Assembly (NCBI GenBank): GCA_026134085.1
Contig: JAOQIN010000003.1
Coordinates: 1-64,000, forward strand
DNA from: Candidatus Methanoxibalbensis ujae
GTDB taxonomy: Archaea > Halobacteriota > Syntropharchaeia > Alkanophagales > Methanospirareceae
DNA: 64,000 nt
Direction of reading: 5' to 3'
A program made the translations under genes and the position numbers. Shown piece after piece: positions 26,797 through 46,739 of the stretch (position 1 is the first letter of the stretch; each line of letters starts with the position of its first letter). A model generated the notes under the pieces. The model was not told where the DNA came from and did not search any database. It saw nothing but the letters and a program-made list of their open reading frames with translations.

Positions 26797-26859
26797 CTTG
26801 TGTAACCTCTCTTAAGCGGCATTTCATCTTTCTTAGCATAAAAAAGTTTAGTTATTTAA

Positions 26860-28807: not shown

Positions 28808-28899
28808 GGTTTATCTCCCCTCTCACTCTCATTATGAATATTCCATCCCAGATATTGCTTCAAATTCCAGATGTTAAATATGTGGGAATCCATAGTGCC

Positions 28900-29770: not shown

Positions 29771-29783
29771 TTCACCTATGCCA

Positions 29784-30596
29784 CTAATAACCTCCAAAGA
29801 ATCTTATAAAATCAATAAACCAATGAAATGTAATAGCGGTCTCCAAATCTCTTTTATATTGTAAAAATGCCATTGGTAATCCAAATAAAAAACCGGTGGA
29901 TATCAGCATAAATAGAGCACCTGGTATATTATGTATCCATAATTCTGGAAAGTGAATTAAACTGTGAGGCACTACACCAAAGAAAAAACTAATTATAACT
30001 GAGTATTTCCTCTCAATCTTCCCTTCTAATAAATAAAATATAAAATTCATAATAAAGAATCTAAATATAATTTCTTCAGAGATTCCTGGTGCTAAAGCTA
30101 AGAAACCCGCACTAAATATATTCATATATTCAGCCTCACCTAAAGTTAGTCTAAAATAAATGTAATTTATTAACGCAAAAGGTAATGCCACCATAACCCC
30201 TATTAAAAATGACTTAAATATTGATTTATACTTCTGTAATATGAGTAATGACTTATTTCTATTTTCACCTGATAATAAACTGCCTCCAAGAAATGCAATA
30301 AATGTCACGATAAAGTTAATCGCTGCTGTGAATGTATCTATCCATTGAATAAAACTTAGATAGCTTATAGCAGCAAGTAATATTCCAAATGTGATATGCC
30401 TTAAATTTAAATCTCTGAGTTTCTTATAAATTGCAAATAGAGCAAGTAAAAGTATATAAAGTTCTGTCCATGTCCAAGCCCTATACGTGAACTTAAAATC
30501 CTGCTCACTCATTGTATAAACAATAGAAAATATGTATAGCAAGATGAATACAGCCAACAAAAGTATGATATCTAGAAAATGCTTCCTAAAAGTCAT
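29784..30596 (-). CDS. CPBP family intramembrane glutamic endopeptidase
   Basis: PGISEEIIFR, HSLIH and ITFHWFID motifs. Confidence 0.82.
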   Translation of the reverse strand: MTFRKHFLDIILLLAVFILLYIFSIVYTMSEQDFKFTYRAWTWTELYILLLALFAIYKKLRDLNLRHITFGILLAAISYLSFIQWIDTFTAAINFIVTFIAFLGGSLLSGENRNKSLLILQKYKSIFKSFLIGVMVALPFALINYIYFRLTLGEAEYMNIFSAGFLALAPGISEEIIFRFFIMNFIFYLLEGKIERKYSVIISFFFGVVPHSLIHFPELWIHNIPGALFMLISTGFLFGLPMAFLQYKRDLETAITFHWFIDFIRFFGGY

Positions 30597-31252
30597 TAAA
30601 TCACCTCTTTCTTATTACACCAAAATAATCGCAATAAAGAAAGTAACACATTGCAAGTATTGTAGTTGTGATTATTTTTGATCTCATTTTCCGATGTATA
30701 AATTGTAAAATGTTGTTCTGGTAAAAAATTGGATTCCCTTTCCAGCAAATAACCTGCCTCTTCCATCTCTTGAACGATAGTTTCCTTATGAACGTAGTGT
30801 TCAAATAATCCACGGAAAGTGAAAGTTTTACCTTTTTCATACTCAATGATAGCAATTCTCTCATCAGGTTTTAAAAATCGTTTTAGACCCTTAAAATACT
30901 CTACCCGATTTGGTATGTGATGGGTGACATTGCGCATGAATATCGAATCCAAGCTTTTTTCAGATAAATTTAATTTATCTCTAGATACAAGCGTTGATAT
31001 AACATTATTCAATCCTTCTTCTTTGGCACTATTCTTGACATACTCTAAAAATTCTGGTTTTGTATCAACTGCATAAACTCTTCTCTCTTCTCTAACTATA
31101 TCGGCAAATCGCAGAGAAAAATAACCCCCTCCTGAACCAATATCTGCAATACTTTGACCGGGCTTTAATGCAATAGCTTCTATAATCTGGTCCGGTTTGT
31201 TTTTGGAGTCAGAAGCCTTTTTATTGAAAATCTTTGCTTGAAAGTCTGCCAT
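30596..31252 (-). CDS. Class I SAM-dependent methyltransferase (C-terminus probably aberrant)
   Basis: IADIGSGGGYFS, VYAVD and NVTHH motifs. Confidence 0.85.
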   Translation of the reverse strand: MADFQAKIFNKKASDSKNKPDQIIEAIALKPGQSIADIGSGGGYFSLRFADIVREERRVYAVDTKPEFLEYVKNSAKEEGLNNVISTLVSRDKLNLSEKSLDSIFMRNVTHHIPNRVEYFKGLKRFLKPDERIAIIEYEKGKTFTFRGLFEHYVHKETIVQEMEEAGYLLERESNFLPEQHFTIYTSENEIKNNHNYNTCNVLLSLLRLFWCNKKEVI

Positions 31253-31302
31253 TTTTTACCTCCTTAAGTTATATCTCCCTCTATCTATATCTTTTCATTT
31301 CA

Positions 31303-31453
31303 GGCGTCCCGAAGCCGATTGCGTATAACGTTTTGCAGATAAAAGAAGTCCCGACTTGTCGGGATTTGGAGAAATCTTTGATTTCCCTTTTATCCGCTGT
31401 TATATGACCCGAGGGGCAAGGTTGCTTCGCAACCAAAGAGTGCAAAGCCCGCC
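31303..31453. repeat. attC-like site S5
   Basis: GTATAAC (31327) GTTTT GCAGATAAAAG-AAGTCCCGAC..GTCGGGATTTGG..CTTTTATCCGC T GTTATAT (31399), plus outer arm. Confidence 0.85.
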
Positions 31454-31461
31454 AAGATTCT

Positions 31462-32928
31462 TTACTCATATTTATCCCTCAATTTACTCTTACTCATTTG
31501 ATCAGGCTTTCTGAAGTTCGCAGTGTAATTCTTTTTCCTGCCGCAGCTCTCAATGAATTCAAAGCCCTGCTTTTCAGCCAACAAACGGACAACCGGCAAA
31601 GGTAAAAAGTCAGGGTCTCCCGGCTGTTCTGTGATGGATAATAAACCGGAGGGTTTTAAGACTCTGTATATAGCACCCAAACACCTTTCCTTATCTGAAA
31701 CTTCACCTAAAACTGCAACGAGAAAGACAACATCAAATTCATTCTCATCAAACGGAAGATCAACAGCATCTCCCTGAGTAAATCCAACATTATGCAGACC
31801 CGCCGACTGAATCTTACGACGTGCTTTTTCAAGCATCTCTTTTTGCAAGTCAAACAATTCCAGATGTCCCTGCGGTATGCGCCGTGCAACTTCAACACTG
31901 AAGTAGCCGGGACCAGGACCTATCTCAAGCACATTGAAATCCTCTTTGAGATGAAGCCTATCAGCCAGCTTCTGGGGAGAAAGAATAAGTCTCCGCAAAG
32001 GAAAATCCAACCAGAAGGATATTTGAGAGGGATAAGTCCCCTTGCCGAAAAAACGCCTTAGGATCCCCTTCTCCGCTGATCTCATTTGGCAGCCTCTTAT
32101 ACGGGTCAAAGTTTTCGGTCCAAAAATGAGCGTTATTACCACTGATAAAATAATAATCAAAATCAGACTGTATAGCCTGCCCTGCTCTGTCAATGGAATG
32201 AGATTTCCACTGAAATTGCACATGAAGTGAAAAAGTATAGCGGAGAGAGTGCTGCGGTTGGTGTTGTTGTAAATCCAGGTGAATAGAATTGAAAGAAAGA
32301 TTGGGCTGAAAATAAACGTCCAGAAATCCAATGTGCCAAATTTTAACACATCGTGCTGCCACTGTCCTTTCATGAAGAAAAGGGGAAGATGCCACAATGC
32401 CCATACCACGCCCAAGAGAAGGCTTGAGAAAAGGGCATTATACCTTGCCTGCAAGCCATCCAGAGCATAACCACGCCAGCCCAGCTCTTCTGGTAATGGT
32501 CCATAGAGCAGGATAAAAACGGCAAAAGGAAGAATTCTCCATGGTTCAAACAGCAGATTTCTGGCTGTTTCAAACTCAGGCCACGGTGAGCCTGCAAGAA
32601 CGCTTAACAGAAGGGCAAGAGTGTTCAGCACAGGAAATGTGAGCCAGATGACCAGATGCCATCTTTTACCAATCCGCCTGATGTCAAATACACGCTGCCA
32701 GTAATCTCTCCATTCTTCTTTATCGTGGGTGCGAGAGATTAAGATGATTTCCGCAATTGCAGGGCCGAACAACCCAAGGGCACCGAGAACTATTGCTGGG
32801 AATGTAAAGACATTCCAGCCCAGCAATATAACCCATATCCAGAAGAACCATGAAATGCCAAGGGCCAGAGTAAAAAACCGCCATGGATTTGCAGCTTTTG
32901 AGTTTTTTGTGCTCATTATTTTATCCAT
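31462..32928 (-). CDS. Fusion of a CPBP protease (N-terminal) and a class I SAM methyltransferase (C-terminal)
   Basis: PEELGWRGY, WALWHLP and ILFHFM, then MRSAEK..LEIGPGPGYFS. Confidence 0.8.
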   Translation of the reverse strand: MDKIMSTKNSKAANPWRFFTLALGISWFFWIWVILLGWNVFTFPAIVLGALGLFGPAIAEIILISRTHDKEEWRDYWQRVFDIRRIGKRWHLVIWLTFPVLNTLALLLSVLAGSPWPEFETARNLLFEPWRILPFAVFILLYGPLPEELGWRGYALDGLQARYNALFSSLLLGVVWALWHLPLFFMKGQWQHDVLKFGTLDFWTFIFSPIFLSILFTWIYNNTNRSTLSAILFHFMCNFSGNLIPLTEQGRLYSLILIIILSVVITLIFGPKTLTRIRGCQMRSAEKGILRRFFGKGTYPSQISFWLDFPLRRLILSPQKLADRLHLKEDFNVLEIGPGPGYFSVEVARRIPQGHLELFDLQKEMLEKARRKIQSAGLHNVGFTQGDAVDLPFDENEFDVVFLVAVLGEVSDKERCLGAIYRVLKPSGLLSITEQPGDPDFLPLPVVRLLAEKQGFEFIESCGRKKNYTANFRKPDQMSKSKLRDKYE

Positions 32929-32953
32929 GCTTTTTACTCCTCTCCTGTTGATC

Positions 32954-33643
32954 TCATAAACTATACCTTAAAACGATTGTAACAAAAATCAAAACAGGGG
33001 ACGAAGTTGCTGGAATTCCACGGTACCACGGTTTGTTCTTAAAAGATAGCATACCAATAATGTTCGGAATCTGCCCAACAATGATAGCACTGATAGCCAT
33101 CCAAATAGCATGTATTCCCCAAATTTTTAGAGTAGCCCCCACAATAAGGGCAAAAACAAACATATCTCCAATGCCAGTTATTTGATATAATCCTGAGAAA
33201 CCTGGAATGGGCATGCAAATCGATAGCCTTTTTGCAATTGTTTTATTCTCAATTAGTTTTCGGTTAGGAGTCCCCTTCCCAAACCGTGTAAAACTGATGA
33301 AATCTATTATAGCGATGGGTATCAGAAAACTTATTAACTTCTCCTGGCTTGAAAGCCAATAAGCAGCCAATATTCCTAATAAAATTCCACCAAGCATATA
33401 TGATACATTGTGTAGATATAAAACATTATCTCGAAAAGGTTGCCGCCATGTCCAAATGGCCAAGACTATCACTATTGCGAGAGCAATTATAATTGATAGG
33501 ATAGATAAATGCGAAATCAAAAATGCAAGCAGGATGTTGGTTAAGCTCAACATGATTATATAAAAAATTATCCGGAAATAAGCAAATTTATTTCTATTTT
33601 TCTCTTTTGTAGTGAGATTTTTATTCTTCATTTTCTTCACCAT
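32954..33643 (-). CDS. Membrane protein resembling GxGD aspartyl intramembrane proteases (presenilin/SPP-like)
   Basis: Transmembrane Asp (IIDFISF), GIGD, C-terminal IPA. Confidence 0.6.
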   Translation of the reverse strand: MVKKMKNKNLTTKEKNRNKFAYFRIIFYIIMLSLTNILLAFLISHLSILSIIIALAIVIVLAIWTWRQPFRDNVLYLHNVSYMLGGILLGILAAYWLSSQEKLISFLIPIAIIDFISFTRFGKGTPNRKLIENKTIAKRLSICMPIPGFSGLYQITGIGDMFVFALIVGATLKIWGIHAIWMAISAIIVGQIPNIIGMLSFKNKPWYRGIPATSSPVLIFVTIVLRYSL

Positions 33644-33684
33644 TTGTTAATTTCATGATGTTATATATTTTTTCTGTTTAAAAA

Positions 33685-33826
33685 TGGGGTTCGGAATTTA
33701 ATATAACAATTTGCAGGTATGCGAAGTGCCGCAGGCATTTGAGTGGGCAAAGCGAACCCGCCTGTTATACGATCCGAACGAAGTGAGGACGAGGAGCGAA
33801 GCGACGAAGCGTTCCGCCCAAAGCTC
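33685..33826. repeat. attC-like site S6
   Basis: ATATAAC (33705), GAAGTGCCGCAGGCATTTG, CCTGTTATACGA (33764), arm with CGAAG hairpins ending CCGCCC. Confidence 0.85.
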
Positions 33827-33842
33827 CATGAAATCTTATGTT

Positions 33843-34625
33843 CTACCATATTAAAATCTCCCCATATGTTATTTTTGTCCCCTTTTCAGCAGTTTTTGTT
33901 TTTTTAAGTATTATTTTGCGTATATGTCTTAAATATTCTTCTCTGAATATCACAAATCCATTATCAAATTTAATGAAATTTTTATTGAACACATCTAACG
34001 CATTTTTGCATTTTACCTTGGTAGTTTCTCTTACGCGAGGATTCAAAATTTTACTTTTTAATTCATTTACATCAATAACTAGGTATGGAACTTCCACAAC
34101 AATATCGGCATGAGTTTGTTGCCTTTTCGTAAATCTACGATTCGAGGCTTCTCGCCTATAAGACACTTTTTTAACCTGAATAGCGATTTTTATTTTGTTT
34201 AATTCCACAATCGCGTCTATTCCCATCATGTCCAATTCTGCGGACGAGATTAATTTTTCTTTAAAAAGAGCATTCCATAGGTATTGAAAATGAAACTGGG
34301 TAAGAATTGACATCCATATACGATACAACCTTGCTTTAAATCCCTCTTCAACAAATTGCAAAGAGCATCCATAAAAATACTTTTTTATAAAGTCATAGAT
34401 ATAAGGGTTGAGTTTTTCTCTCCAATAGATCTTAAAAATTTCATCATAATCCTTAAAATCAGTAGAATCCCAATAATATTTATAGTATATTTCAAGAGGT
34501 AACAATTCTCGTGGCAAATCCCGCTCAACAGTTTTTATTTGTCTCAGATGTGCATATTTTTGTACCTCTATGTTTTTGAGAAAATCTACGAGTTTCTTTA
34601 AGTCTACTTTCCAGTTTCTTACCAT
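33843..34625 (-). CDS. TaqI-family type II restriction endonuclease
   Basis: IKTVERDLPREL, KYFYGCS, ARLYR, TQFHF, GIDA..IQVKK; colinear with TaqI as I recall it. Confidence 0.88.
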   Translation of the reverse strand: MVRNWKVDLKKLVDFLKNIEVQKYAHLRQIKTVERDLPRELLPLEIYYKYYWDSTDFKDYDEIFKIYWREKLNPYIYDFIKKYFYGCSLQFVEEGFKARLYRIWMSILTQFHFQYLWNALFKEKLISSAELDMMGIDAIVELNKIKIAIQVKKVSYRREASNRRFTKRQQTHADIVVEVPYLVIDVNELKSKILNPRVRETTKVKCKNALDVFNKNFIKFDNGFVIFREEYLRHIRKIILKKTKTAEKGTKITYGEILIW

Positions 34626-35977
34626 AATAACACCTCTTTTAATTTTTTAAGTTCTTTTTTTGCAGGCAAAGGAAGCAATTTTAATTGTGTTATATTGAAA
34701 TGATAAGTTATATCCCTAAACACATCCTTTACATATTTTTTTATTATTTTTGAATTCAAAAATTCAACTACTTCTTCATCAGTGAGATCAAATTGCATAT
34801 TTGTCAAAGTATGCTTTCTCAATAAATGATAAACATCACCCATCCACGGATACGCCCTGTAATCATATGCAGCACCTACTTGTCCATCTCCCCTGAAACC
34901 CAAGCCAACGACTATGTGCGGTTTGTCAAAAAACTTTCTTAACTTTGTTTTTTTATTTCTATCTATCCAATATCCAGTCACAGCTTTATAAATCACTTCA
35001 CCTATTTTCAAGTTCCTCCCATTGAGAACTGGAAGTAAGTTGTCCTTATTTATTTCCTTTGCCCTGATGATCTCTGAATTATGTTTTATCTCCGGTGTTC
35101 TTGGCGATATCTTTATTGTGTATATATCGCCAACTCTATAACTGCAAATTTCATCAACCTTCCTGCTAAATTCTGTGGAGAATGACACAACTTCTCCTTT
35201 CCAACTGTCATTTCTTGTAATCAGTTTTGGGCTGCCATTGTTATAATCAAACAACCTCAGCTTACCCCTTTCTGATCTTGTTTTTACAAATTTTAAAACG
35301 ACAGTAGTCACGTCTGCCTCTGGTTTAAAAACCTCACCACCCATATATACAAGTTCAATTTCACCTCTTGAAGCGAGAAAACTACGAAGTTTTTTGAACT
35401 CATCGAGAATCATGAATGTTGCAGGAACAATAAATATAAGTTGGCCATTTTCTTTTAATAATTTTACAGACTTTTCTATGAATGCTCCATAGACATTGTA
35501 TTTTCCATACCAGGTTTCATATATTTCTTTATATTTTCTTTTTGTCTCATTATCTACACGAATGGTATAATGCTCTGATAAGCTTGGAATACCATAGGGT
35601 GGATTTCCTATGATTATGTCAAATTTTTCGTCTGTCTCCCATAGTAAATAATCACTGTGAATGATTTTTATATCCTGTGCGAGGTTGCTCTCATTTATAT
35701 AATCAATCACCTCTTTATTAATTTCTACACCTATTTTTGGGGAGGAATTTTCAAAAATATGCCTCTTAATTCTTTTGATCCCAGACAAAAACTGACAGAT
35801 TCCGCATGCTGGTTCAAGGATCTTAGCAGTTTGAGGCAACTCATTTTCATTTATTAGATTTACCATAAAATCAACTATCCACTGAGGCGTGAAAAAAATA
35901 CCCCAATCTCTCTTTATATGTTTGATTTTGTTGTTTACTACATTTGCATGAGCCTCAACCTTTGTACTATCCATCAT
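34619..35977 (-). CDS. M.TaqI-like N6-adenine DNA methyltransferase
   Basis: FFTP, LEPACG, GNPPYG, GKYNVYGAF, VPATF, GRNLK and RAYPW motifs. Confidence 0.92.
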   Translation of the reverse strand: MMDSTKVEAHANVVNNKIKHIKRDWGIFFTPQWIVDFMVNLINENELPQTAKILEPACGICQFLSGIKRIKRHIFENSSPKIGVEINKEVIDYINESNLAQDIKIIHSDYLLWETDEKFDIIIGNPPYGIPSLSEHYTIRVDNETKRKYKEIYETWYGKYNVYGAFIEKSVKLLKENGQLIFIVPATFMILDEFKKLRSFLASRGEIELVYMGGEVFKPEADVTTVVLKFVKTRSERGKLRLFDYNNGSPKLITRNDSWKGEVVSFSTEFSRKVDEICSYRVGDIYTIKISPRTPEIKHNSEIIRAKEINKDNLLPVLNGRNLKIGEVIYKAVTGYWIDRNKKTKLRKFFDKPHIVVGLGFRGDGQVGAAYDYRAYPWMGDVYHLLRKHTLTNMQFDLTDEEVVEFLNSKIIKKYVKDVFRDITYHFNITQLKLLPLPAKKELKKLKEVLLW

Positions 35978-36027
35978 GATCTTCCTTTATGTAGTATGCT
36001 TTTAAAATACTTTTAAATTTTTTATCA

Positions 36028-36145
36028 GAGTTTCAGGGCGAAATGTCATATAACCCCGCATATACAACGTTGCGACGAAGTGTGAAGGCAAGGAGTAGCC
36101 TTGGCGTCTGTGCTGTGCCATCTGATGTGCTGTGCCGTTCTCTGT
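36028..36145. repeat. attC-like site S7 (GTT decayed to GCC)
   Basis: GGGCGAAATGTCATATAAC (36052); body nearly identical to S14. Confidence 0.7.
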
Positions 36146-36409
36146 CATAGCTGAGCAAAAACTCGAGCGAGAAAAACCGCCCCTATCTCTGCTGATTGAT
36201 TGTCATGCAGTTGCTCCACTCGCTCGCTGAAATAAAATATTGAAATAAAATAGCTAACATAGCAGTCGCAACAGGAAATGTGAGACACCACAATGCGAGA
36301 GATACCATCGTAGCTGCCATTATTCCCAATCCACCTGAGATAACACCTGCAATACCTGCCGCAACATTTATAAATAAAAAGTCGTTGTAACTGGAAAAGG
36401 TGATGGAAA

Positions 36410-36784
36410 GTGAAGAAAAGGGATCTATATTTGGTGGTATTTGTCTGTAGTCTTGCATCTAACCTACTCGTTCAGCTCACTCCCTCAGTAAACTGGCCCC
36501 CAATTTTTTATGTATTCATCATAACACTTTTCACAACACTCCTCTCCCTTTATCTGCTCATTCTCAATGGCATATTCATGAAACTCTCCAAAGCCGGACT
36601 GTTCCTTTTTCTTCTGATATTCCCCCTCATAATGTTCTTTACGTTTTGGTTCGGTCTGTGGGGTTATTGTGATTTGCTGAATCTGAGCAAAACAGGTGAT
36701 TGCGTACTTGTAGCTCTGATAGTCCTTCCTGTCACAATTGCTGTCGCTGTGGTTGGTCCGATCCTTACGATTTTAAGGAAGTAA
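36410..36784 (+). CDS. Small multi-pass membrane protein, opposite orientation to the array
   Basis: 124-aa ORF with about four hydrophobic segments. Confidence 0.5.
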   Translation: MKKRDLYLVVFVCSLASNLLVQLTPSVNWPPIFYVFIITLFTTLLSLYLLILNGIFMKLSKAGLFLFLLIFPLIMFFTFWFGLWGYCDLLNLSKTGDCVLVALIVLPVTIAVAVVGPILTILRK

Positions 36785-36886
36785 TGAGATGCTAAGAGCA
36801 TGATATTTTCGCCCATAAATTAAGAGGTATTTTGTAATTTTTTCTGTTGGCCTCTCAGATAAGAAATCTGATATCATAAATAACCC

Positions 36887-37612
36887 CTATGTATATCTAC
36901 TTGTTTCATTTGTTACCTCATCCATTTTATCCAGATCATTCTGTTGAAATTGTTTCATAAACTGTTCCATCGGGAAGGGCTTTCCATGCCCCGGAGTTTT
37001 TATTCTCAACTTTTTCAGTTTCTTGACACTTTCATTTGCTACTGTTAAGTCGTCCATAATAGAGCTGAGAACTGGTTTGTCTTTATTTTCAAGCAGATCT
37101 CCGCAAAAAAGATCGCCATCTGCTGTCAGTATTCCTATTGAACCTTTTGAGTTCCCGGGAATATGAAGAACTTTTGCATTGAATCCGTATTCAGTGAGAT
37201 CATATCCCTCATCAATACATAAATCCGGTTTGAATCGCTCCTTTTTGCCAAATCTGAACAGGATGCGAGCCATCATTCCAAGGAGAACATTGCCTTTTCT
37301 CCTGTTCCAGAACATGTCTCCACGTTCGCTCATTCCCGAATCACCATGATGCATCGCTATCCCTGCACCGAACTTTTCACGGAGATGAGCTGCATTGCCT
37401 GTGTGGTCAAAATCTCCATGGGTTAAAACGATAAGTTTGAGATTGCCGGGTTTACACCCCGCTTTTTCAAGTTCTTTTTCAAGTTCGGCGCGCTTATTTG
37501 AACATGCTGTGTCGATCAGGATATAGCCGGTGTCGGTTTCTATGAGGTAGCAATTTACGGTACCTAACTTATAAGGCAGTGGTAAAGTAATGGTCTTGAG
37601 CTTTGTAGACAT
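36887..37612 (-). CDS. MBL-fold metallo-hydrolase (possibly degenerate)
   Basis: THGDFDHTG, PGNS (His replaced by Asn), GD and PGHG motifs. Confidence 0.82.
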   Translation of the reverse strand: MSTKLKTITLPLPYKLGTVNCYLIETDTGYILIDTACSNKRAELEKELEKAGCKPGNLKLIVLTHGDFDHTGNAAHLREKFGAGIAMHHGDSGMSERGDMFWNRRKGNVLLGMMARILFRFGKKERFKPDLCIDEGYDLTEYGFNAKVLHIPGNSKGSIGILTADGDLFCGDLLENKDKPVLSSIMDDLTVANESVKKLKKLRIKTPGHGKPFPMEQFMKQFQQNDLDKMDEVTNETSRYT

Positions 37613-37651
37613 TTTATCCTTCCTCCTTTTCTTGCCGACAGGGCGCTATCT

Positions 37652-38032
37652 TCACTCCAGCTCGTGTCCCCTTTCGACTCGGGACTCTGCGAAGCTGCAG
37701 AGTCGTCTATCGCACGGCTCGTAAGAAGCTGGACACAGCAAGGACACAGTCCAGCCCACGATTCCTCCAAATGCCAGTAGGCGTATCAGAGCTGGATAGG
37801 AGGATTCCCAGATCCACAGCCCCACCATGCCGGGGAGAAACAACACCCAGACGATTATCTGTGCGATCAAAGGCAAGCCTCGCATCCAGTTCCAGACCAA
37901 GTCCAGCCACTCCAAGTTCATGACCAGTGCGACAATGAACCCGCCCCACCACATCGCGAAAATCACGACGGCGTAGGTGCTGAGTACTCGTGTAACAACA
38001 TCGCTCCAGAACGATGGATCCTTCATAATCAC
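37652..38032 (-). CDS. Hypothetical membrane protein
   Basis: Trp-rich hydrophobic ORF directly after site S8. Confidence 0.6.
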   Translation of the reverse strand: MIMKDPSFWSDVVTRVLSTYAVVIFAMWWGGFIVALVMNLEWLDLVWNWMRGLPLIAQIIVWVLFLPGMVGLWIWESSYPALIRLLAFGGIVGWTVSLLCPASYEPCDRRLCSFAESRVERGHELE

Positions 38033-38067
38033 TCATCCCTTCTTCATGGCTATGCCTCTTTATATGC

Positions 38068-38160
38068 TTTCGCTTAACGTTTCGCGGATAAAAGACGAAG
38101 GCTTGGAAATCTTTGATTTCACTTTTATCCGCTGTTGGGCGTCCCAATGGGCAAAATTTT
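38068..38160. repeat. attC-like site S8
   Basis: GCTTAAC (38076) GTTTC GCGGATAAAAG...CTTTTATCCGC T GTTGGGC (38134). Confidence 0.85.
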
Positions 38161-38411
38161 TCTAAAAAGAAGTTTTGAGTTTTCGAGAGCTCGGTTTTAT
38201 TCTGCTTATGGCTTTATTATCAAACTACATGGAGTATCTGAGCTATAAGCTTGGCGTTACTTTCTACGATGTTGTCAATCTTTGCTCCGTTGAGATAGTA
38301 CAAGCATTTGCTTACGTGATCACGTGGTCAGTTTCAATGATTAAAATCCCGAAAAGATTAGATCAGTCTGAGTTTGAGTGGGTGCTGTGTGATATTGTAT
38401 TGGATATTGTG

Positions 38412-39104
38412 TTAGATGTCTTGGAGGGGTCGAATGGTTGTACCGGTTCCGCCTCCTGGGTCTAGGTCGAGGATGATAAGGAGTCCCCTATACCCCTCTT
38501 TCTTCACGACTATTTCGTAGACTTCTCCAAGCTTAAACATGTGACTTAATTCTCCATTGCTATCGGTGTAACCTACGAATGTGCCGTTTATGTAGACTTC
38601 AGCTTTCTCGACGGGACGTCCATTGGAGGTAATGCGCATAACTTTGAACTGCTTATCATCGTACAACCTTTCAAGCTTCATGCTAAAAGACAGATATCCT
38701 TTAAGTCTTACGTTGACGAACGTTGCTTGGGGGAAGAAACCTTCCTTTTCGGCGTAAATTTTGTACCATCCTTCCTCCTCGAAAACATGGGTGATTTCTC
38801 CGCTTGAGTTCGTCTCGCCTATGTACATTCCCTTCGTCGATAAGTTGTGGTCCTTCGCGACGTAAACCTTGGCTCCCTTGACGGGGTTGCCTCTGAAATC
38901 TCTGACAATTATCTTGACTCTCTCGCCGATTGTTGGGTTCTCGGGTATGAGGTCTATCTTCAGCTTGTTAGCTTCTGGCTTCTCTGGCTGCTTTGTCTCC
39001 ATTACTTCAACTTCAATAATTTTCATGTTTAACGCTAAAGTGCTAACTATCAGCATGACTATAGCTACGGCTGTAGCTAGGAAGATGGCTCCCCTTCTAT
39101 GCAT
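38412..39104 (-). CDS. Secreted protein with two carboxypeptidase-regulatory/PEGA-like beta domains
   Basis: Signal peptide; repeated G.PV..A.VY..G.T...GE...Y.I...KEG. Confidence 0.65.
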   Translation of the reverse strand: MHRRGAIFLATAVAIVMLIVSTLALNMKIIEVEVMETKQPEKPEANKLKIDLIPENPTIGERVKIIVRDFRGNPVKGAKVYVAKDHNLSTKGMYIGETNSSGEITHVFEEEGWYKIYAEKEGFFPQATFVNVRLKGYLSFSMKLERLYDDKQFKVMRITSNGRPVEKAEVYINGTFVGYTDSNGELSHMFKLGEVYEIVVKKEGYRGLLIILDLDPGGGTGTTIRPLQDI

Positions 39105-39156
39105 CTGTATCCTTCGATAAATTTAATGTGTTCACGTATTTAAATATTTCATTCTT

Positions 39157-39786
39157 TCATTCTCGCAATATCTTCTGATCAGGCAGTCTTCGCATTTGGG
39201 ATTCCGCGACCTGCAAATTCGCCTTCCAAATTCTATCAGTATTGGGTTTTCGTTCTTTGTTTTGGTGGTATCTCAGATTCGAGTTTCGCTCTCAAACTCT
39301 CATAATTGTCTCTTTCACCGGCTATTCCCAATCTTTTCATTATTCTGAAAATGTGAACATCAATGGGTAGTACCTGTTCTCCCTTAATCGCCATTAAAAA
39401 GACATCTGCGGTTTTCGGGCCAATTCCCTTTATTGAGGTCAGTTTTTTCTTTACCTCGTCATAAGGAAGTTTCAATATTTTTATCTTTCCATCGTATTTT
39501 TCAACTAAATCTTCGGCGATATTTTTGATTCTTCTGGCTCTGATCCTATATAAACCCGCCGGTTTAATAACTTTCTCAATCTCTCTCATTTGCCTTTGCC
39601 ACATCTTCAATGCCATTAAACCTCTCACTAAATCTTTCAGTGGCAGTTCTCACATTTTTCCAATACATTCGCTGGGAAAGGATTATACTAACCAATGTTT
39701 CGAACGGAGTATATCTTTCCCACCACTCGTTGATTTTGTATTTCTTAGGATCTCCTCTATCTTTTGAAGTTTTGTTCCCATACTCA
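39157..39786 (-). pseudogene. nth: Endonuclease III (Nth) family, frameshifted
   Basis: PFETLVSIILSQ, then GIGPKTA and PIDVH, then GRRICRSRNPKCEDC, spread over broken frames. Confidence 0.8.
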
Positions 39787-40291
39787 TCACTTGGCAGCAC
39801 TCGCCTTACAGATGTATCTCATCTTACATCGTGCGCATCCCTTTTTTCTTCCGAACTGATTTAGCACCATTATCGCCAGGAAGCCAGTTAGACTTATTCC
39901 ACCAGATACTGAAAATTCCCCGTGCAGAAACATCGCAACGGGAATGGCGATGATTGGAATAATTGTCAATAGACCTCAGGTTAAACAAGCCGGTTTCACT
40001 CCCACATCATAATTACCGGATTTCTGAATAAACACGAACTCGATTTACCCCAGCCGGTGCCGCACAACTTGCCGTAGTAATAGCAATGCGTGCAAAGATG
40101 TTCCCTTAATGAATCCGAGCATTAAAAAAGCAAATAACATATAAATGAACGGACAATCCCTCAAGTTTCAATGCAGACATACTGTGAGCTGCGAATCCAA
40201 ACCAGAGCAATAGCAAAACATTTGTTAAAACCGCCGTTGCCTTTAATTCTCCAATCCATTTTCGTATAGTTTTTGTTTTTCCATATTTCAC
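39787..40291 (-). pseudogene. Cys-rich membrane protein remnant
   Basis: CTHCYYYGKLCGTGWG and CARCKMRYIC in different frames. Confidence 0.5.
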
Positions 40292-41217
40292 ACTTTCTTT
40301 CTATTTTCCACATTATAAGCACATATTAAATAATAAATTACCCATCCCCTGAACTCGCCCCACCTTTCCGTAAATTTTCTAACGGTATCTCCTGATTGAA
40401 GTTTTCCGTCAAAGTAGAAGTGTGAAACTGCTTTTCTGGCTCCGAGGTCATCGGGAACGCAGAGATCCATTCTTCCTAATGTCGTTATCAGTATTAACTC
40501 GGCAGTCCACCTTCCGATTCCCTTAAATTTCATCAACTCTTCAATTGCTCCCTCATTACCCAATCTTTTAATTTTCTCCAAATCGTATCCATCGGCAACT
40601 TTCAGTGCGAGTTCTTTGATGTATCTGGCTTTCTGACGGGATAACTTACACTTCCTCAATTCGTTCTCATCGGCATTTGCCAACACTTGAGGTGAAGGAA
40701 AATCGTAATATGGTTCGCCATCGATTTCTATTTTCTCTCCGAATCTTTTGACCAATTCCCCAGTCATGACATAGGCAACCCGTAAAGAAATCTGCTGCTG
40801 GATTATCACTCTGATCGCTCCCTCAAATATACTCGCCCCGATTCCCGGCGGTCTCAGACCGTAAAGTTCTTTCTTTATCTTACGAAGTATCTCATCTTGT
40901 TCCATAAAATCATACAATGCTCTGAGGTCATCTCTCAATCTAAAAATGTCCGCGATTTTATCCGACAGATATCTCTTCTCTTTCGTATTGAGTTTGGAAA
41001 ATGCGTTAACCCTCAACTTTGGCTTTTCCACAGTGCCAACAGAAGTAACCTCCATTGGAACTAATCTATCTCCAATTTTAAAACTCCGTCTCCAAATGCC
41101 ATCTTTATAAATTTCTGGCTGTGGCTCTTTCGATGAAGAATAAAATTTCCACTGCAGATCAAAATCATAGGGCGGAGTTGGTAGGAGTTCGAATGAAGTT
41201 TTATCCATGATAATCAC
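40288..41217 (-). CDS. alkA: DNA-3-methyladenine glycosylase II (AlkA family)
   Basis: IIQQQIS, FPSPQ, KGIGRWTAE and DDLG (HhH-GPD) motifs. Confidence 0.9.
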   Translation of the reverse strand: MIIMDKTSFELLPTPPYDFDLQWKFYSSSKEPQPEIYKDGIWRRSFKIGDRLVPMEVTSVGTVEKPKLRVNAFSKLNTKEKRYLSDKIADIFRLRDDLRALYDFMEQDEILRKIKKELYGLRPPGIGASIFEGAIRVIIQQQISLRVAYVMTGELVKRFGEKIEIDGEPYYDFPSPQVLANADENELRKCKLSRQKARYIKELALKVADGYDLEKIKRLGNEGAIEELMKFKGIGRWTAELILITTLGRMDLCVPDDLGARKAVSHFYFDGKLQSGDTVRKFTERWGEFRGWVIYYLICAYNVENRKKV

Positions 41218-41287
41218 TTAAATTCAATTTATTTAATAATTTTTTCACACGTCGTGTCAAATCAAGATTTGAAAATAGCGAACCCTC

Positions 41288-41426
41288 GAAATTTCGCCTA
41301 ACGTTTTGCGGACATACGAAGTTCTGCTTTGCGAAATTTGGGCGTAGCCGAAGGCGAAGCCACATATCCGCCTGTTGTCCGAGTGCGTTAGCGCCGAAGC
41401 GAAGCGGAGAGTTCACGGAGCCCCGC
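41288..41426. repeat. attC-like site S9
   Basis: GCCTAAC (41300), GAAGTT..AAATTTGG, CCTGTTGTCCGA (41374), arm GAGTTCACGGAGCCCCGC. Confidence 0.88.
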
Positions 41427-41433
41427 CGAGAAA

Positions 41434-41823
41434 TTAAACTTGCTTTTCTCTTATTATCAAAAAAACTATTGAAAGTATTAACCCTGTTGTATAAAGAGGA
41501 GAAATTGTAAAGTAAAATGGAAAGAATAGGTTAGGTATTACAGAAATGGTTGTGACTAAAACTTCGGTGAAATTGTAACCAAAATATAAAACTGATGAAT
41601 ATTCTCCCAAATTTTTCTTCTTCAGTAAGGTATAAGCGATTACTACTCCAACAAGACCATTCGCTAATAAACATATTGAAGTGTTTATGCCACCTAATTT
41701 AATGCCAAAGAAATGGGTTTCTGGAGTTATAAATGAAGTAAAAACTAAACCGAAGAAATTTAGTCCAAGAAGAAATATGAGTATGTACCTCACAATATTG
41801 GCTAAATTTATGTTTTTCATCAT
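41434..41823 (-). CDS. Hypothetical membrane protein (single-gene cassette)
   Basis: 129-aa hydrophobic ORF filling the space between S9 and S10. Confidence 0.7.
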   Translation of the reverse strand: MMKNINLANIVRYILIFLLGLNFFGLVFTSFITPETHFFGIKLGGINTSICLLANGLVGVVIAYTLLKKKNLGEYSSVLYFGYNFTEVLVTTISVIPNLFFPFYFTISPLYTTGLILSIVFLIIREKQV

Positions 41824-41866
41824 AGTTTATATTAAATACTAAATTATTTTAAAAACTTCTTCCTAA

Positions 41867-42027
41867 GCGGGGCGGAGTGAATTTCGGACAACGTCTGGGG
41901 CGTATGCGGAGTTGCGGAGCGAAGCGACGCAATTTGGGTGTAGCGACCATAAGGGGGCAAAACCGCATACGCACCTGTTGTCCGAGTGCGAAAGCACCGA
42001 GCAATCCGAAGGCGAGAGTCCCGCCGC
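41867..42027. repeat. attC-like site S10
   Basis: TCGGACAAC (41890), GCGTATGCG..CGCATACGC stem, CTGTTGTCCGA (41977), plus outer arm. Confidence 0.88.
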
Positions 42028-42429
42028 TCATATTTTTTCTTCCTCCATCCATATTTTAAGATAGCTTTTTAACGTTTGAACGAAATTTTTGGCAGTTTCT
42101 AACATATCTCTTGCCTCTCCTTCAGTGACGATAAAACCTATGCCGTAATCCCCTATCAATCTTTTATCATAGGCATCGTTAAGCGTTTTCCTCAAACCTC
42201 TATCAAAAATTCCTGTTTTTATAAAGTGTTCTCCAAATAAACTTATCCAAATAAACCTATCACTCCTTTATGAGAAGAAGCACTCAAGTTCTTGGTAAGA
42301 AGTGCCGCTTCTGCCATGAAAAACATCGCATAATAGTTGAAACACAGGAATCGTAATCTCCAATATTAAGGGTTTGTTCTGCTGTTTTTAGAAATTTCCT
42401 TTTTCTATGAAATCCTTTATCTCCTTCAT
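42028..42429 (-). pseudogene. HEPN-domain toxin remnant
   Basis: YYAMF..AEAAL..SSHKGVI and AYDKRLIGDY in broken frames. Confidence 0.75.
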
Positions 42430-42746
42430 ATCCTTATCCCCTCTTTCCTCACATTTATTACAAATGGATAATTATAGTTTTCAAAGAAGGTCTTAGGAAG
42501 AGCAATAACCGAAACAAGTTCTCCCTTCTCAAGTAATATGTCAAACAGAAGGTCACTCAAACTTCTCCTCACCTCAAAGGGATCAATTGAATCATCAATG
42601 AGCACAAGTAAATCTATGTCTGAATCTTTTGTCGCTTCGCCTCTCGCATGAGAACCATAAAGAATAATCTTTTTAATCTTATCTCTATATCTTTCTATCA
42701 GATGACATTTCACTTGATTTACCAGTTGAGTTATTCTCTTATCCAT
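42426..42746 (-). CDS. Minimal nucleotidyltransferase (MNT) antitoxin
   Basis: LYGSHARG..SDIDLL; EGIRI C-terminus. Confidence 0.88.
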   Translation of the reverse strand: MDKRITQLVNQVKCHLIERYRDKIKKIILYGSHARGEATKDSDIDLLVLIDDSIDPFEVRRSLSDLLFDILLEKGELVSVIALPKTFFENYNYPFVINVRKEGIRI

Positions 42747-42763
42747 TTTTTCACCACTTTAAA

Positions 42764-42900
42764 CGGGGTTCGGGATTTCGGACAACGTTCTGGTATGTGA
42801 AGTTTTGCCTTGCGAAATTTGCACGAGCGTTAGCGAGCCACCTCCTGTTAGCAGACTTGAAGGGCAAGGTGCGAAGCATTGCAGAGTGACAAAGCCCGCC
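42764..42900. repeat. attC-like site S11
   Basis: TCGGACAAC (42784), GAAGTTTTGC..GCGAAATTTG, CCTGTTAGCAG (42847), arm TGCGAAGCA..GAGTG..CCCGCC. Confidence 0.82.
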
Positions 42901-42923
42901 ACACATCCAGACAATCACTGAGT

Positions 42924-43388
42924 TTATTTTCTAATGGTCATTTTGCATCCTTTGTCTGTAAATTCCGCCGTCAAATTCACTCCTAAATTCTCGGCAACGG
43001 GCTTGAAGTAACCATTTATGCACCCACCACAATGTTGCTCCTTCGTTATCGGAGCTCCTTTCTCTGCAAATTCCAGGGCTACCTTTAGATTGTTGCATTC
43101 CTTAATCTCCAAAGTAACACTTCCATCCTCATTTGGCACAACATCCACATCGCTACCAAAGACATTTTTGCATGTTATCGCCTGGGTCATCGCAAAACCC
43201 ATAGGGTCATCTTTTCCCATCGCTTTAAATTGTTCAGCAGATTGCTTTGCCACTCGTTGATTGTATTCTTCCAATCCCTGCGGCCCCAGTTTCTCCATGA
43301 TGAAGCCAATTGCTCCATACATCTGCTCCACCCACATTTGGGTGAACATCTTTTGTCTTTCTTTTTCCGGCAAAGTCGGTATTTCCAT
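42924..43388 (-). CDS. Hypothetical protein with conserved Cys (V4R/ATC-hydrolase-like ligand-binding fold); the upstream extension in the ORF track is probably spurious
   Basis: RBS-like GGGGT before MEIPTL; EC..HC..C..GC pattern. Confidence 0.55.
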   Translation of the reverse strand: MEIPTLPEKERQKMFTQMWVEQMYGAIGFIMEKLGPQGLEEYNQRVAKQSAEQFKAMGKDDPMGFAMTQAITCKNVFGSDVDVVPNEDGSVTLEIKECNNLKVALEFAEKGAPITKEQHCGGCINGYFKPVAENLGVNLTAEFTDKGCKMTIRK

Positions 43389-43874
43389 CTCTTTTACCCC
43401 CTGTTTGAATGTTGTTTTATGATTGCATATAAACTTACTCCTTCTCAAGGCGGGCCTGGGCATTTCACTGGGGATATGTGAAGTTTCCCGTAGGCAAATC
43501 TGGATGAACTTTTCACCGCGCCATCTCCCAGCATGAAACATAAATTTACCGAAGGCTGATATACCTCCACCAAAAGAGTTTGTTCCGGCATAGAGCTCCA
43601 TCATAACGGTATAGTGAAAGATAACCAGGGGTGAATGATCGCACTCTGTAGTGTCCCACCATGAGACCCAGCACAAATGGATTGTAAAGTGAGGTCTCAG
43701 TCGAATACCATAAGCGAGGGCAGCTCCTTCATAATGCCTTCTGGCAGGAAAAAAAGCCGAAAGCGTGGGCAAGAGCTGGGAATGTAAAGAAAAACATGAA
43801 AGCATACCCTGTTCTTACCCAAAGACTTTCGTGGCCTGAGTCTTTTATGCTTCATTTTTCAGTGCCCCCTACTA

Positions 43875-44013
43875 TCGGCTGTTTCATCTAACATATCGCA
43901 AATATGCGAAGTTTGGCGTAAGCCAAATTTGGCAATCTTTGATTGCGAAACCACATATTTGCTGTTATGTCCCCCGATAGGGTAAATTGCGAAGCAATTT
44001 GAGTTCCGCCGCC
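43875..44013. repeat. attC-like site S12
   Basis: ATCTAAC (43890) ATATC GCAAATATG..CATATTTGC T GTTATGTC (43964), arm AATTGCGAAGCAATT-GAGTTCCGCCGCC. Confidence 0.88.
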
Positions 44014-44021
44014 GAGCATTA

Positions 44022-44698
44022 TTATAATTCTACTGTGGCAATTATTGGTAAATGATCGGACAGTCTTGGCTTTTGATTAAAATTTCGTTCTCATCACCAA
44101 CCTTGATTTCCTCAACTTTGACATCTTTCGGGATAAAAAGATAATCCAATTGATATGGTTTCTTGTTCGCAGGAGAAATAAAAGTAAAAGCTTTTGGGAT
44201 GAATTTAAGAGAGATTATAACCTATTTGATAGTTCTTTTTTCTGCTAGTATTCCCCAATCTTTATATTTACATCGAAACTTTTCATCCATATTGAAATCT
44301 CCGCCAATAATGATCGTTTGCACTCTATTCATTATTCCGAATATAGCTTAACATACTAAAAACTTGGAGAACTCATTTTCATCAAGTCCAATATAATTGT
44401 AAACATAAATACTATTCTTTTCTCAGCTAATTCCATTTTGGCAGAAACATAAAAATCTACAAGCACATCAATTTCTGAATTATTGGAAATTATGTTTTCT
44501 TCTTTTACCTGCATTATATCCAGATTTTTCTTAATCAATACAGCATTCATTTCACCACGGATAATATGGTATTTTTTCTTATCGCATAAGCATATAAACT
44601 AAATAATCCCACCTCAAAATCTAGTTTATTAAAATAGTAAAATTTTTTCTTGTATATGCAGCTCTGTTTATGTTCCATGTAACGATTTTCAGCTTCAT
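44022..44698 (-). pseudogene. Endonuclease/exonuclease/phosphatase (EEP) family remnant
   Basis: MKLKIVTWNI, IIGGDFN, YQLDYLF and SDHLP in shifted frames. Confidence 0.8.
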
Positions 44699-44721
44699 TT
44701 TCAATCCCCCTCTATTTGTGA

Positions 44722-44835
44722 GGCGGCGGAATTAGACATAACGTCCCCGGTGTATCTGAGTATCTGAAGTCCGCCGAAGGTGGATTTGGGCAGGTGCTGT
44801 AAGGCACGAAGCCAGATACGCTCTGTTAGCGGAAC
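44722..44835. repeat. attC-like site S13
   Basis: GGCGGCGGAATTAGACATAAC (44740), GAAGTCCGCCGAAGGTGGATTTGG, CTGTTAGCG (44825). Confidence 0.85.
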
Positions 44836-44843
44836 TTTTATTT

Positions 44844-45455
44844 TTAAATAAATAAAAAAAGAGTCATTATATTAGCCGACGAGTGTGTTATCCAGCTCGG
44901 AATGATACTGCCATTTCCCACCTTTTCATTTATGTATCCCATTAAATAGCCAATTGTCCCTGTAAGCAATACTATCGCTGTTATTCCAACAATATTTCTA
45001 ATTATCTCCCAGAATAAAACCCCATGCATTAAGCCAAATAATATACTTTGTAAAAGATTTCCATAATTAAATCCCAATAAATTGATGAACCTTTTTCCAA
45101 GAAAACCCCTGAACAAAATTTCTTCCGACATTGCTGTTGCCACCATTGATTTGATTAAAACAATCAGTATCGCATCCACACAAAATCCCATTTGTTTTAC
45201 AGCTCCACCGACTAAACCTTCAGCCCTAAGAGAATCAAGTAATCCAAGTTTCCAATACACCAGCCAAGAACCACCAAAATACAACAGTGCTACAACTATT
45301 GAGATCGGAATAGATTTTCTCTCAGGTTTAATTAGTCCAATATACCTCAAAAAGCCAGTTATCTTCTTATTTTTCACTAGATAAAAAATCAAAGGTATTG
45401 CTGAAAAAATCGCAACTTGGATTAAAGCCGAAATTAAAGTTATTAAAACAATCAT
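44844..45455 (-). CDS. CPBP family intramembrane metalloprotease
   Basis: SEEILFRG, FGLMH and WITHSSAN motifs. Confidence 0.88.
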   Translation of the reverse strand: MIVLITLISALIQVAIFSAIPLIFYLVKNKKITGFLRYIGLIKPERKSIPISIVVALLYFGGSWLVYWKLGLLDSLRAEGLVGGAVKQMGFCVDAILIVLIKSMVATAMSEEILFRGFLGKRFINLLGFNYGNLLQSILFGLMHGVLFWEIIRNIVGITAIVLLTGTIGYLMGYINEKVGNGSIIPSWITHSSANIMTLFLFI

Positions 45456-45504
45456 TTTTATTACCTCCTTTATTACCTCCTTATTTTATATTTACAATCC
45501 GAGG

Positions 45505-45600
45505 ATGTCTCCAGCATATACGACGTTGCGACGAAGTGTCCTGAAGGGCAAGGCGTAGCCGTGGCGTATATGCTGTGTTATCTGATGTGCCGTTCTCTGT
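45505..45600. repeat. attC-like site S14 (AAC lost)
   Basis: AGCATATACG..CGTATATGCT stem, GTTATCTG at 45577; paralogous to S7. Confidence 0.7.
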
Positions 45601-45628
45601 GTCGCCAAAAACCGAATCGTAAACCTCA

Positions 45629-46519: not shown

Positions 46520-46645
46520 GGCAAAGCATTCAGCGTCCTGAGGATATGCTTGAGGCAAATTTGGGCTCTGTAGCCATTCCTGTCAGCAGAGGCCATTCCT
46601 GTCAGCAGAATGGCGAGGCACGAAGTAAGAGTTCAGACGCCGCCG
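46520..46645. repeat. Degenerate attC-like site S15 (proximal boundary)
   Basis: AGC in place of AAC, AAATTTGGG, duplicated GCCATTCCTGTCAGCAGA (GTC for GTT), arm GAGTTC..CGCCGCC. Confidence 0.55.
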
Positions 46646-46739
46646 AATTTCTGTATCATTTCACTTTTTTACACTTTTTTATAATCAGACCTATCAGGCC
46701 TTCATGCTGCCTTAACGAATTTTTCTTTTGCGTCATTGC

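Follow-up and report, generated by a model that had tools for sequence, protein, structure and literature searches.

The first 64 kb of a 95-kb contig of Candidatus Methanoxibalbensis ujae (JAOQIN010000003.1, positions 1 to 64,000; hereafter the window) contain, at about 23.7-46.7 kb, about 20 short genes, every one of them on the minus strand, and between these genes structured repeats that always lie on the plus strand. Judging from sequence, we consider it fairly likely that the repeats are attC-type sites bounding integron-like cassettes, and that they are read as folded bottom-strand hairpins by a tyrosine recombinase that is related to the integron integrase IntI, lacks its I2 region and bears a HARP-like domain.

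Throughout the genome (1.99 Mb in 86 contigs, 89% complete, mcrA present), nhmmer and a covariance model found 46 sites on 18 of the 86 contigs. The covariance model, R1, was built from sites and run with filters off over all 64 kb of the window, where it returned 15 matches at E<=1. Thirteen of these lie on the plus strand between 24380 and 45589, and no site was found by R1 in the window outside the array. The two minus-strand matches are the reverse of strong plus-strand sites (14.7 versus 72.1 bits and 13.6 versus 49.1 bits). The interval 31303-44835, for which the initial annotation had described the repeats, spans S4 to S12 (Table 1), i.e. 8 of the 13 sites.

Forty-one of the 46 genome sites were aligned (alignment A1), the five omitted being nhmmer matches with no placeable GTT. 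On the plus strand, the consensus of the 41 sites reads ...ATTTC-RYYY-AAC, GTTYT, GCGGRTATGYG and AAGT-hairpin-ATTT in the 5' half, followed by GGC-(GNA mini-hairpins)-GCC, CRCATAYCCGC, T and GTT-RRRY-GA... in the 3' half. The order put forward in the initial annotation (AAC, about 5 unpaired nucleotides, a stem, GAAGT-hairpin-ATTTG, the stem partner, 1-2 nucleotides, GTT) was thereby borne out. Among the 41 sites, 31 have a stem of 7 bp or more, and in these the mean spacer length is 4.9 nt on the 5' side and 1.8 nt on the 3' side, the former being the longer in 27; the commonest (5',3') combinations are (5,1), found in 10 sites, and (5,2), found in five. The asymmetry recurs in 24 sites from other genomes, with 19 cases of (5,1), four of (5,2) and one of (4,1). 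In all 24 the first base of the bulge is G, which in the fold can form a wobble pair with the T preceding GTT and so leave a pure 4-nt pyrimidine bulge.

In canonical attC sites each arm has 5-6 unpaired nucleotides (PMC5027507), and the L'' arm carries two or three extrahelical bases (G and T) spaced by 6 bp (PMC5027507, PMC7439510). Extrahelical bases were not found here: the 11 pairs of the stem are contiguous, and neither arm has a bulge column. The claim of a non-canonical architecture thus holds for the one-sided spacer and the absent extrahelical bases. It does not hold for the R boxes, which are fully canonical: RYYYAAC and GTTRRRY, e.g. GCCTAAC and GTTAGGC, coincide with the published bottom-strand consensus (PMC5027507). 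AAC and GTT pair in 37 of the 41 sites of this genome and in 21-24 of the 24 sites from other genomes. GAAGT...ATTTG is present as described, and AAGT pairs with ATTT at the base of the first branch hairpin; these four pairs are invariant in the 24 sites from other genomes, and covariation is mute on them because they never vary. As the initial annotation suggested, they may serve as binding elements for a protein.

The covariation check that had been proposed with the initial annotation spoke for the 11-bp stem. The structure evaluated was the one read from the sequences by eye, RNAalifold having given none. In A1 the stem is 88.6% paired, compensatory changes occur at 8 of its 11 pairs, and the covariation score of 0.257 exceeded that of all 500 shuffles (0.152 for shuffled alignments), falling to at most 0.108 when the partners were slid against each other. 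We used alignment A4, composed of 24 distinct sites from about 20 other genomes, as an independent set. Here the structure is 95.5% paired and the stem 98.1%, with a score of 0.475 versus 0.129 (reached by none of 500 shuffles) and compensatory changes again at 8 of the 11 stem pairs.

With respect to the cassette genes, the plus strand is the bottom one and, as had been predicted, the better folder, its fold being the more stable one in 34 of 41 sites (mean -12.5 versus -10.8 kcal/mol, difference -1.68, Wilcoxon p=5e-6). For comparison, the gain in stability of the bottom strand is 2.12 kcal/mol in the attC sites of mobile integrons (PMC5027507). When six sites of the window were folded singly against dinucleotide shuffles, the plus strand reached z-scores of -3.3 or below in four, and it was more stable than its complement in five, with a margin of only about 0.2 kcal/mol in two. 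The reported concentration of mini-hairpin loops on the plus strand was also confirmed, with 9 versus 2 copies of GCGAAGC and 35 versus 11 of CGAAG in the array. Over the 41 sites with their arms, the counts for the model strand and its complement are 76 versus 1 for CGAAG and 21 versus 1 for GCGAAGC.

The position of the exchange can be approached through the sequences that flank the sites. We compared the six bases outside AAC and GTT, setting those after the GTT of a site against those before the AAC of the site that follows. These R''/R' flanks of the same cassette are complementary at 4.3 of 6 positions (22 neighbouring pairs under 2.5 kb, permutation p<5e-5), as against 3.0 of 6 for the two flanks of the same site (n=41) and 2.95 of 6 for random pairs (n=1640). 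The outer arms behave in the same way: their duplex energy is -8.8 kcal/mol within a cassette versus -6.9 kcal/mol for random combinations (p=0.0004), while within a single site it is -7.4 kcal/mol (p=0.10). Since flanks and arms are complementary per cassette and not per site, the exchange has taken place at or next to AAC/GTT, and this cassette-wise pairing is the signature of cassettes shuffled by AAC/GTT exchange. The pairing beyond the core that the initial annotation described is real as far as the outer arms exist, but it joins the two ends of a cassette, not the two sides of a site, and it concerns only about a quarter of the sites genome-wide (of the 41 sites, 10 have a CCGCC/CCCGC arm after them and 9 a G-rich arm before them). 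By reading of the arm listing, the CCGCC arm is present at 7 of 10 strong sites in the window. Arms that belong to the two ends of one cassette would meet only when the cassette is circular.

Further joints between sites were sought in contigs from four public sequencing runs. Many inter-site joints with short sides (<30 nt) were seen, and these are weak evidence for cassette rearrangement since repeats can produce them. A joint from 43469 to 45507, with TAAC between and sides of 46 and 55 nt, occurs in contigs of two other studies, and another leads from 41376 to 42862 (side of 28 nt). Both hint, if weakly, at alternative cassette orders with breaks at AAC/GTT.

The same observations bear on the notion that the repeats are not recombination sites and are instead palindromes of the repetitive extragenic palindromic (REP) or miniature inverted-repeat transposable element (MITE) kind, or terminators, that have spread between genes. 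In favour of this notion, the repeats are intergenic, palindromic, richer in GC than their surroundings and scattered over many contigs. Elements of that kind would not account for flanks that are complementary per cassette, for the strict single orientation relative to the genes, for the conserved AAC/GTT triplets, or for the linkage to an integrase and an attI-like junction described below; moreover, Rfam, which contains no attC family, gave no match at gathering scores over positions 23000-47000 of the window. We regard this explanation as very improbable.

The enzyme comes into view in related genomes. R1 detected the site type in 85 of 151 of them, among these 59 of the 65 from the same family. 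Many of these relatives carry a recombinase of 345-390 residues, to which TIGR02249 matches in two pieces with a gap at about 180-232 and a score of 243 bits (cut-off 265). This IntI-like gene is what emerged from the search, suggested with the initial annotation, for a gene family that co-occurs with matches of the site model: at 11 of the 14 evaluable integrase loci, i.e. those with enough downstream sequence, a site lies no more than about 1.5 kb away, in every case downstream of the gene and on the other strand. A nearby site was found at none of three plain XerA loci and at none of two loci with a short integrase. Up to three copies of the array-linked integrase occur in one genome (G067), and it is often a pseudogene. 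The plain XerA-type genes of the phylum, with 275-310 residues, form a separate group that scores 110-166 bits as against 500-645 bits.

Among solved structures, the best relative of the array-linked integrase is VchIntIA (IntI4; 2a3v) with 169.5 bits in two pieces, compared with 137 and 134 bits for XerA. The catalytic residues R194, K219, H284, H310 and Y319 are invariant among 52 relatives, and R287 is nearly so. What is reduced is the IntI-specific region (the I2 helix, around patch III), of which 25 residues are left versus 67 in VchIntIA, i.e. about 42 fewer; this agrees with the earlier suggestion that a recombinase distinct from classical IntI may read the sites, in that such an enzyme adjoins them in relatives. 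In a tree of 23 recombinases and one partial classical IntI, deep supports were 12-43.

At the other end, the N-terminal 65 residues are predicted with a predicted local distance difference test (pLDDT) score above 90 to form a beta-beta-alpha-beta-beta-alpha-beta domain. A profile of this domain matches the HARP domain of SMARCAL1 (4o66, E 7e-4), and the predicted model aligns with the N-terminal domains of T4 UvsW and archaeal XPB (Z 7.9 and 7.8, root-mean-square deviation 1.6 Å, over 59 and 55 residues). Pfam HARP itself matches with E 0.0026-0.046, under its cut-off. N-terminal domains of the HARP/UvsW/XPB type bind forked or branched DNA. The ATPase of SMARCAL1 is stimulated by fork DNA, and UvsW is fork-specific (PMC9368896).

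Separately, we noted a sister family in the same class (genomes G069, G073 and G076; loci L042, L044 and L046), made up of IntI-like recombinases of 272-308 residues that have neither the N-terminal domain nor the I2 region. The archaeal site model has no match in these three genomes, and the family may use another type of site.

The integrase gene of the relatives is located upstream of the cassettes, shares their orientation and is transcribed towards them. Downstream of intact integrase genes we found one to three perfect palindromes, GTATATMCG...CGKATATAC, whose arms resemble the attC stem. They are followed by the junction ...CCGAAG|TTATATGAAATGGCGG, and because the sequence from TT onward is the usual 5' end of a cassette, the attI junction is placed at G|TT, as in classical integrons. 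The bottom strand of this attI could fold as AAC, a 4-nt spacer and a hairpin, like half an attC. In six loci (L034, L035, L036, L037, L047 and L050) the palindromes fall within the first ~150 nt after the integrase stop codon.

A trace of the same arrangement is preserved in the genome of the window. Contig C7 holds an 82-residue, frameshifted, C-terminal piece of an integrase of the same family as that of the relatives, situated directly after a tRNA gene and directly upstream of co-oriented cassettes that bear the same sites, and it retains a decayed version of the attI region. At this locus (L003, 6390-6960), the tRNA gene precedes the remnant, and after the remnant come three direct copies of GAAGTTCGTRTATAC that resemble a decayed attI. 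A tblastn search gave one additional weak match, on contig C33. At neither the left nor the right end of the array in the window is there an integrase or an attI-like palindrome. With no integrase beside it and a remnant only in its genome, this array is probably a static copy or one served in trans.

Taken together, these features lead us to propose the following course of recombination. The bottom strand would fold into a hairpin, on which one monomer would sit on the R box and cut AA|C, as IntI does, while a second monomer would occupy the stem. On the cleaved arm, C and 5 nt would separate the cut from the stem, about 6 nt as in canonical attC. The partner arm would be nearly without spacer, so that the site, rather than opening as a bubble, would already be kinked by a bulge. 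In the absence of extrahelical bases and of the I2 region, specificity for strand and structure would have to come from the bulge, the invariant junction and the HARP-like domain. The fold may be stabilised or stiffened by the GNA mini-hairpins together with the outer arms, mainly in the excised circle, where the ends of a cassette meet.

Several observations weigh against this proposal. No intact integrase was found in the 89%-complete genome of the window, where TIGR02249 and PF00589 matched only C7:15623-15781; the link between site and enzyme rests on the genomes of relatives, and many integrase copies there are broken. Two of the six singly folded sites, S8 (z -0.04) and S12 (z -0.96), fold no better than shuffled sequences. 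RNAalifold, applied to a MAFFT alignment of the 41 sites, returned no consensus structure. In A1, pairs changed on both sides number 19 versus 16.6 in shuffled alignments (a value reached by 33 of 500), and further pair types 46 versus 48.5 (reached by 446 of 500), while the statistics of A4 favour the structure because that alignment was fitted to the structure of the model. The fold of the N-terminal domain has Z values below 8, for which the tool warns of a common arrangement. A weaker point is that S6 (about 36040) and S13 (45494) are divergent variants. The remaining contrary points concern two other explanations, to which we turn now.

According to the first, the sites are ordinary attC sites within the known variation and are served by a classical, I2-bearing IntI that is unassembled, lost or acting in trans, the domain-less recombinase being a bystander. 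The R boxes are indeed canonical, and the energetic bias towards the bottom strand resembles that of mobile-integron attC sites. In addition, the standard pipeline of Ghaly et al. 2022 called 7, 2 and 2 attC sites in three metagenome-assembled genomes (MAGs) of ANME-1 (anaerobic methanotrophic archaea, group 1), one of them with an IntI call (Data S1/S3, PMC9668308), so that some sites of this lineage may pass the standard model; IntI1 recombined 8 of the 9 archaeal attC sites tested in that work (PMC9668308). The IntI call and the result with IntI1 also count against our proposal. Classical IntI, however, is absent from the genome of the window and exceeds the TIGR02249 cut-off in only one of the 151 related genomes and one of 401 genomes in a phylum-wide sample. 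That single case, a fragment (G114), lies on a 2.2-kb contig next to a site of another kind, at odds with a site type present in more than half of the related genomes. Nor would a bystander be expected to hold a fixed position and orientation relative to the arrays, or to have behind it an attI-like junction leading into normal cassette sequence, and the stem offers an I2 domain no extrahelical bases to hold. We therefore think it unlikely that these are ordinary sites of a classical IntI.

The second explanation is that the cassettes are moved by a housekeeping XerA-type recombinase, hijacked by folded sites as CTX-phi hijacks XerCD (PMC4792948), and that the array-linked gene is that Xer. 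Contrary to our proposal and in line with this one, the enzyme passes the NCBIfam XerA model NF040815 (235.7 bits, cut-off 220), and its predicted core fold is nearest to archaeal XerA (Z 21.6, as against 17.5 for IntI4). The NCBI name of NF040815 is 'site-specific tyrosine recombinase/integron integrase'. The plain XerA-type genes of the phylum, on the other hand, stand apart at lower scores and away from sites, and the array-linked gene is longer than they are (345-390 versus about 280 residues) and has an extra N-terminal domain. Its multiple copies and frequent decay make it unlike an essential dimer-resolution gene. An origin of the movement in a housekeeping Xer thus seems quite improbable to us, and we return to a dedicated, I2-less integrase as the reading that we prefer.

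The family of this integrase is very large, with at least 7953 relatives at E<=1e-20 among 8000 scored candidates. Names given to its members at source include 'site-specific tyrosine recombinase/integron integrase' and come from Thermoplasmatota, Methanophagales, Methanotrichaceae and the bacterium Thermodesulforhabdus. Among the matches listed, full-length relatives that have the N-terminal domain and 37-48% identity occur in Spirochaetota, Firmicutes, Bacteroidota and Gemmatimonadota. When the archaeal site model was run on 80 bacterial and archaeal loci of integrase relatives, three matches with E<1e-4 (L093, L119 and L081) and two weak ones were among those listed; in L119 the match lies on the other side and the other strand relative to the integrase. 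The model is too sequence-specific for the site type to be mapped widely with it.

The mention, in the initial annotation, of similar sites in spirochaetes and Bacteroidota was supported by one locus of each, both downstream of the same kind of integrase. The contig of a Bacteroidia MAG (L093, 4733-4843) carries a site of 63.7 bits that by eye has the bulge and the AAGT/ATTTG branch of the archaeal sites; upstream of it lie a HARP-domain integrase and an AT-rich methylase cassette. A Spirochaetota contig has a match of 35.5 bits downstream of a HARP-domain integrase. The Bacteroidia locus suggests that site and enzyme are shared across domains.

There may be a second widespread lineage of integrons in Archaea and Bacteria, in which an I2-less, HARP-type, Xer/IntI-like recombinase captures cassettes through bulged three-way-junction hairpins without extrahelical bases, a proposition for which we see the chances as evenly balanced. 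If it holds, standard finders would file such arrays as integrase-less, and the system may stand near the transition from Xer to IntI and move cassettes across domains. What is taken to define integron recombination is the lock-and-key fit between the I2 domain and the extrahelical bases, and software for integron detection requires that domain; site and enzyme appear here to have shed the two together across many genomes. Should this be correct, many attC clusters classed as integrase-less would be complete systems, the minimum needed for recombining a folded single strand would be smaller than thought, and the route from Xer to IntI would become testable. The one-sided bulge and the invariant AAGT/ATTT junction provide concrete features to mutate.

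The coordinates of the sites and cassette genes in the window are collected in Table 1.

Table 1. Sites and cassette genes of the array in the window
Feature	Position	Strand	Description	Evidence
Left-end half site	23715..23790	+	GTT and type-B outer arm, AAC half missing; like the arm after S9	By reading; no R1 match
S1	24380..24512	+	Degenerate (ACC for AAC); type-A outer arm ending CCCGCC	R1 28.4 bits; nhmmer 72 bits
S2	25186..25317	+	Interrupted; overlaps the end of a truncated FMN-reductase-like open reading frame	R1 16 bits, E 0.22; Pfam
S3	25628..25706	+	Stem shortened	R1 45.6 bits
S4	31300..31456	+	TATAAC, GTTTT, 11-bp stem (one A.C mismatch), AAGT-hairpin-ATTT, second hairpin, stem partner, T, GTTATA, outer arm	R1 72.1 bits; DNA fold z -5.61
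S5	33677..33820	+	Outer arm present	R1 54.9 bits
S6	36040..36180	+	Divergent: R' flank as in S3, core different, S13-like	By reading; no R1 match at E<=1
S7	38066..38146	+	4-nt bulge, perfect 11-bp stem, without GAAGT/ATTTG branch	R1 49.1 bits; fold z -3.27
S8	41269..41431	+	Type-B outer arm	R1 77.8 bits; folded alone z -0.04
S9	41860..42032	+	Perfect 8-bp R box, outer arms; left arm pairs with S8 arm (one cassette, -15.6 kcal/mol)	R1 62.9 bits; fold z -4.48
S10	42758..42906	+	Type-A outer arm	R1 58.4 bits
Degenerate site	43461..43540	+	AAC missing; within open frame 42924-43805	R1 17 bits, E 0.12
S11	43873..44017	+	Outer arm ends CCGCCGCC; pairs with arm preceding S12 (one cassette, -17.0 kcal/mol)	R1 59.7 bits; fold z -4.71
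S12	44723..44837	+		R1 52.0 bits; folded alone z -0.96
S13	45494..45589	+	Divergent: 10-bp stem, copy without AAC	R1 21.2 bits, E 0.012
Decayed site remnant	46540..46680	+	Right end of array	By reading
Cassette genes	24546..46414	-	HepT, DUF6544, CAAX proteases, methyltransferases, TaqI-type restriction-modification pair	Open reading frames and Pfam
Further cassette genes	24546..46414	-	Metallo-beta-lactamase-fold protein, AlkA-like glycosylases, nucleotidyltransferase, several without family	Open reading frames and Pfam

The array is embedded in archaeal sequence, as both of its flanks carry archaeal core genes (tRNA-intron endonuclease, diphthamide synthesis, LSM, RNase P Rpr2, RFC, EMC6-arch and SRP54; Pfam). 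The metagenomes that contain the stretch come from hydrothermal vents and sediment. Among the cassettes, the TaqI-type restriction endonuclease and its methylase form a single one (33843-35977, minus strand) bounded by S5 and S6, and genes of toxin-antitoxin type are represented by HepT (24546-24809) and the nucleotidyltransferase (42426-42746). The open frame 42924-43805, of 293 codons, may consist of two cassettes that were fused through decay of the site inside it.

Beyond the cassettes, a RuvC-family Holliday-junction resolvase (PF02075, E 1.8e-46), which is of bacterial type, is encoded at 51829-52335 on the plus strand amid the archaeal core genes of this contig. Two sets of short direct repeats, CCCTCATAGAACA and GAGGGATGTGTCT with three copies each, occupy 23420-23565, in the interval that separates the array's left end from the Rpr2 gene, and a low-complexity, A-rich tract with units like AAAACAAAAC is found at 13641-13773.

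Compared with classical integrons (IntI1 with attCaadA7, and VchIntIA with the Vibrio cholerae repeats, VCR; 2a3v), the system agrees in its co-oriented, promoterless cassettes, in the RYYYAAC/GTTRRRY R boxes of the bottom strand, in an imperfect hairpin with a variable and sometimes branched tip, in the greater stability of the bottom strand and in the G|TT junction of attI, and its integrase is closest in sequence to IntI4. In contrast to a classical attC with 5-6 nt on each arm, one arm has a spacer of 4-5 nt and the other a spacer of 1-2 nt, the bulge is conserved (G, then pyrimidines), the G and T extrahelical bases are absent, the base of the AAGT/ATTT branch is invariant, and the R helix is lengthened by cassette-specific outer arms. 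The integrase differs from classical IntI in missing about 42 residues of the IntI-specific region, in having gained the HARP-like N-terminal domain and in being transcribed towards the cassettes, and the attI differs in its one to three perfect palindromes. Transcription of integrase gene and cassettes in the same direction is shared with the reverse-orientation integrons of Spirochaetota (Treponema type; orientation according to PMC9668308).

Ghaly et al. 2022 described archaeal integrons and clusters of attC sites lacking an integrase (CALINs) in MAGs, and in most of these arrays no IntI was called (PMC9668308). As here, these arrays include ANME-1, and their sites are more similar within a genome and an order. 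The 2-7 attC sites per ANME-1 MAG in that study and the 46 model matches in the present genome come from other genomes and other models and are not directly comparable. Archaeal attC sites were said there to fold like bacterial ones and archaeal IntIs to have the IntI-specific domain (PMC9668308). The pipeline calls an integrase only when the IntI-specific profile matches (PMC9668308), and a HARP-bearing enzyme without that domain would therefore go unreported.

By analogy, the nearest mechanistic precedent is CTX-phi with XerCD. There, a hairpin without extrahelical bases in its stem is recombined by XerCD, which lacks an I2-like domain (Escudero et al., PMC4792948), and a folded single strand of attP(+) is thus used much as we propose for the archaeal sites. 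Unlike the present system, CTX-phi has a single phage site, which exploits the host Xer at dif, and it lacks a dedicated integrase, an attI and a cassette array. Full-text searches of the literature, with subscription-only papers outside their scope, returned no description of a one-sided spacer, of missing extrahelical bases or of a domain-less, HARP-bearing integrase beside arrays. Thus, arrays in ANME-1 are known already, and what is new here, within the integron kind, is a site architecture with a one-sided bulge together with a domain-less, HARP-bearing enzyme.

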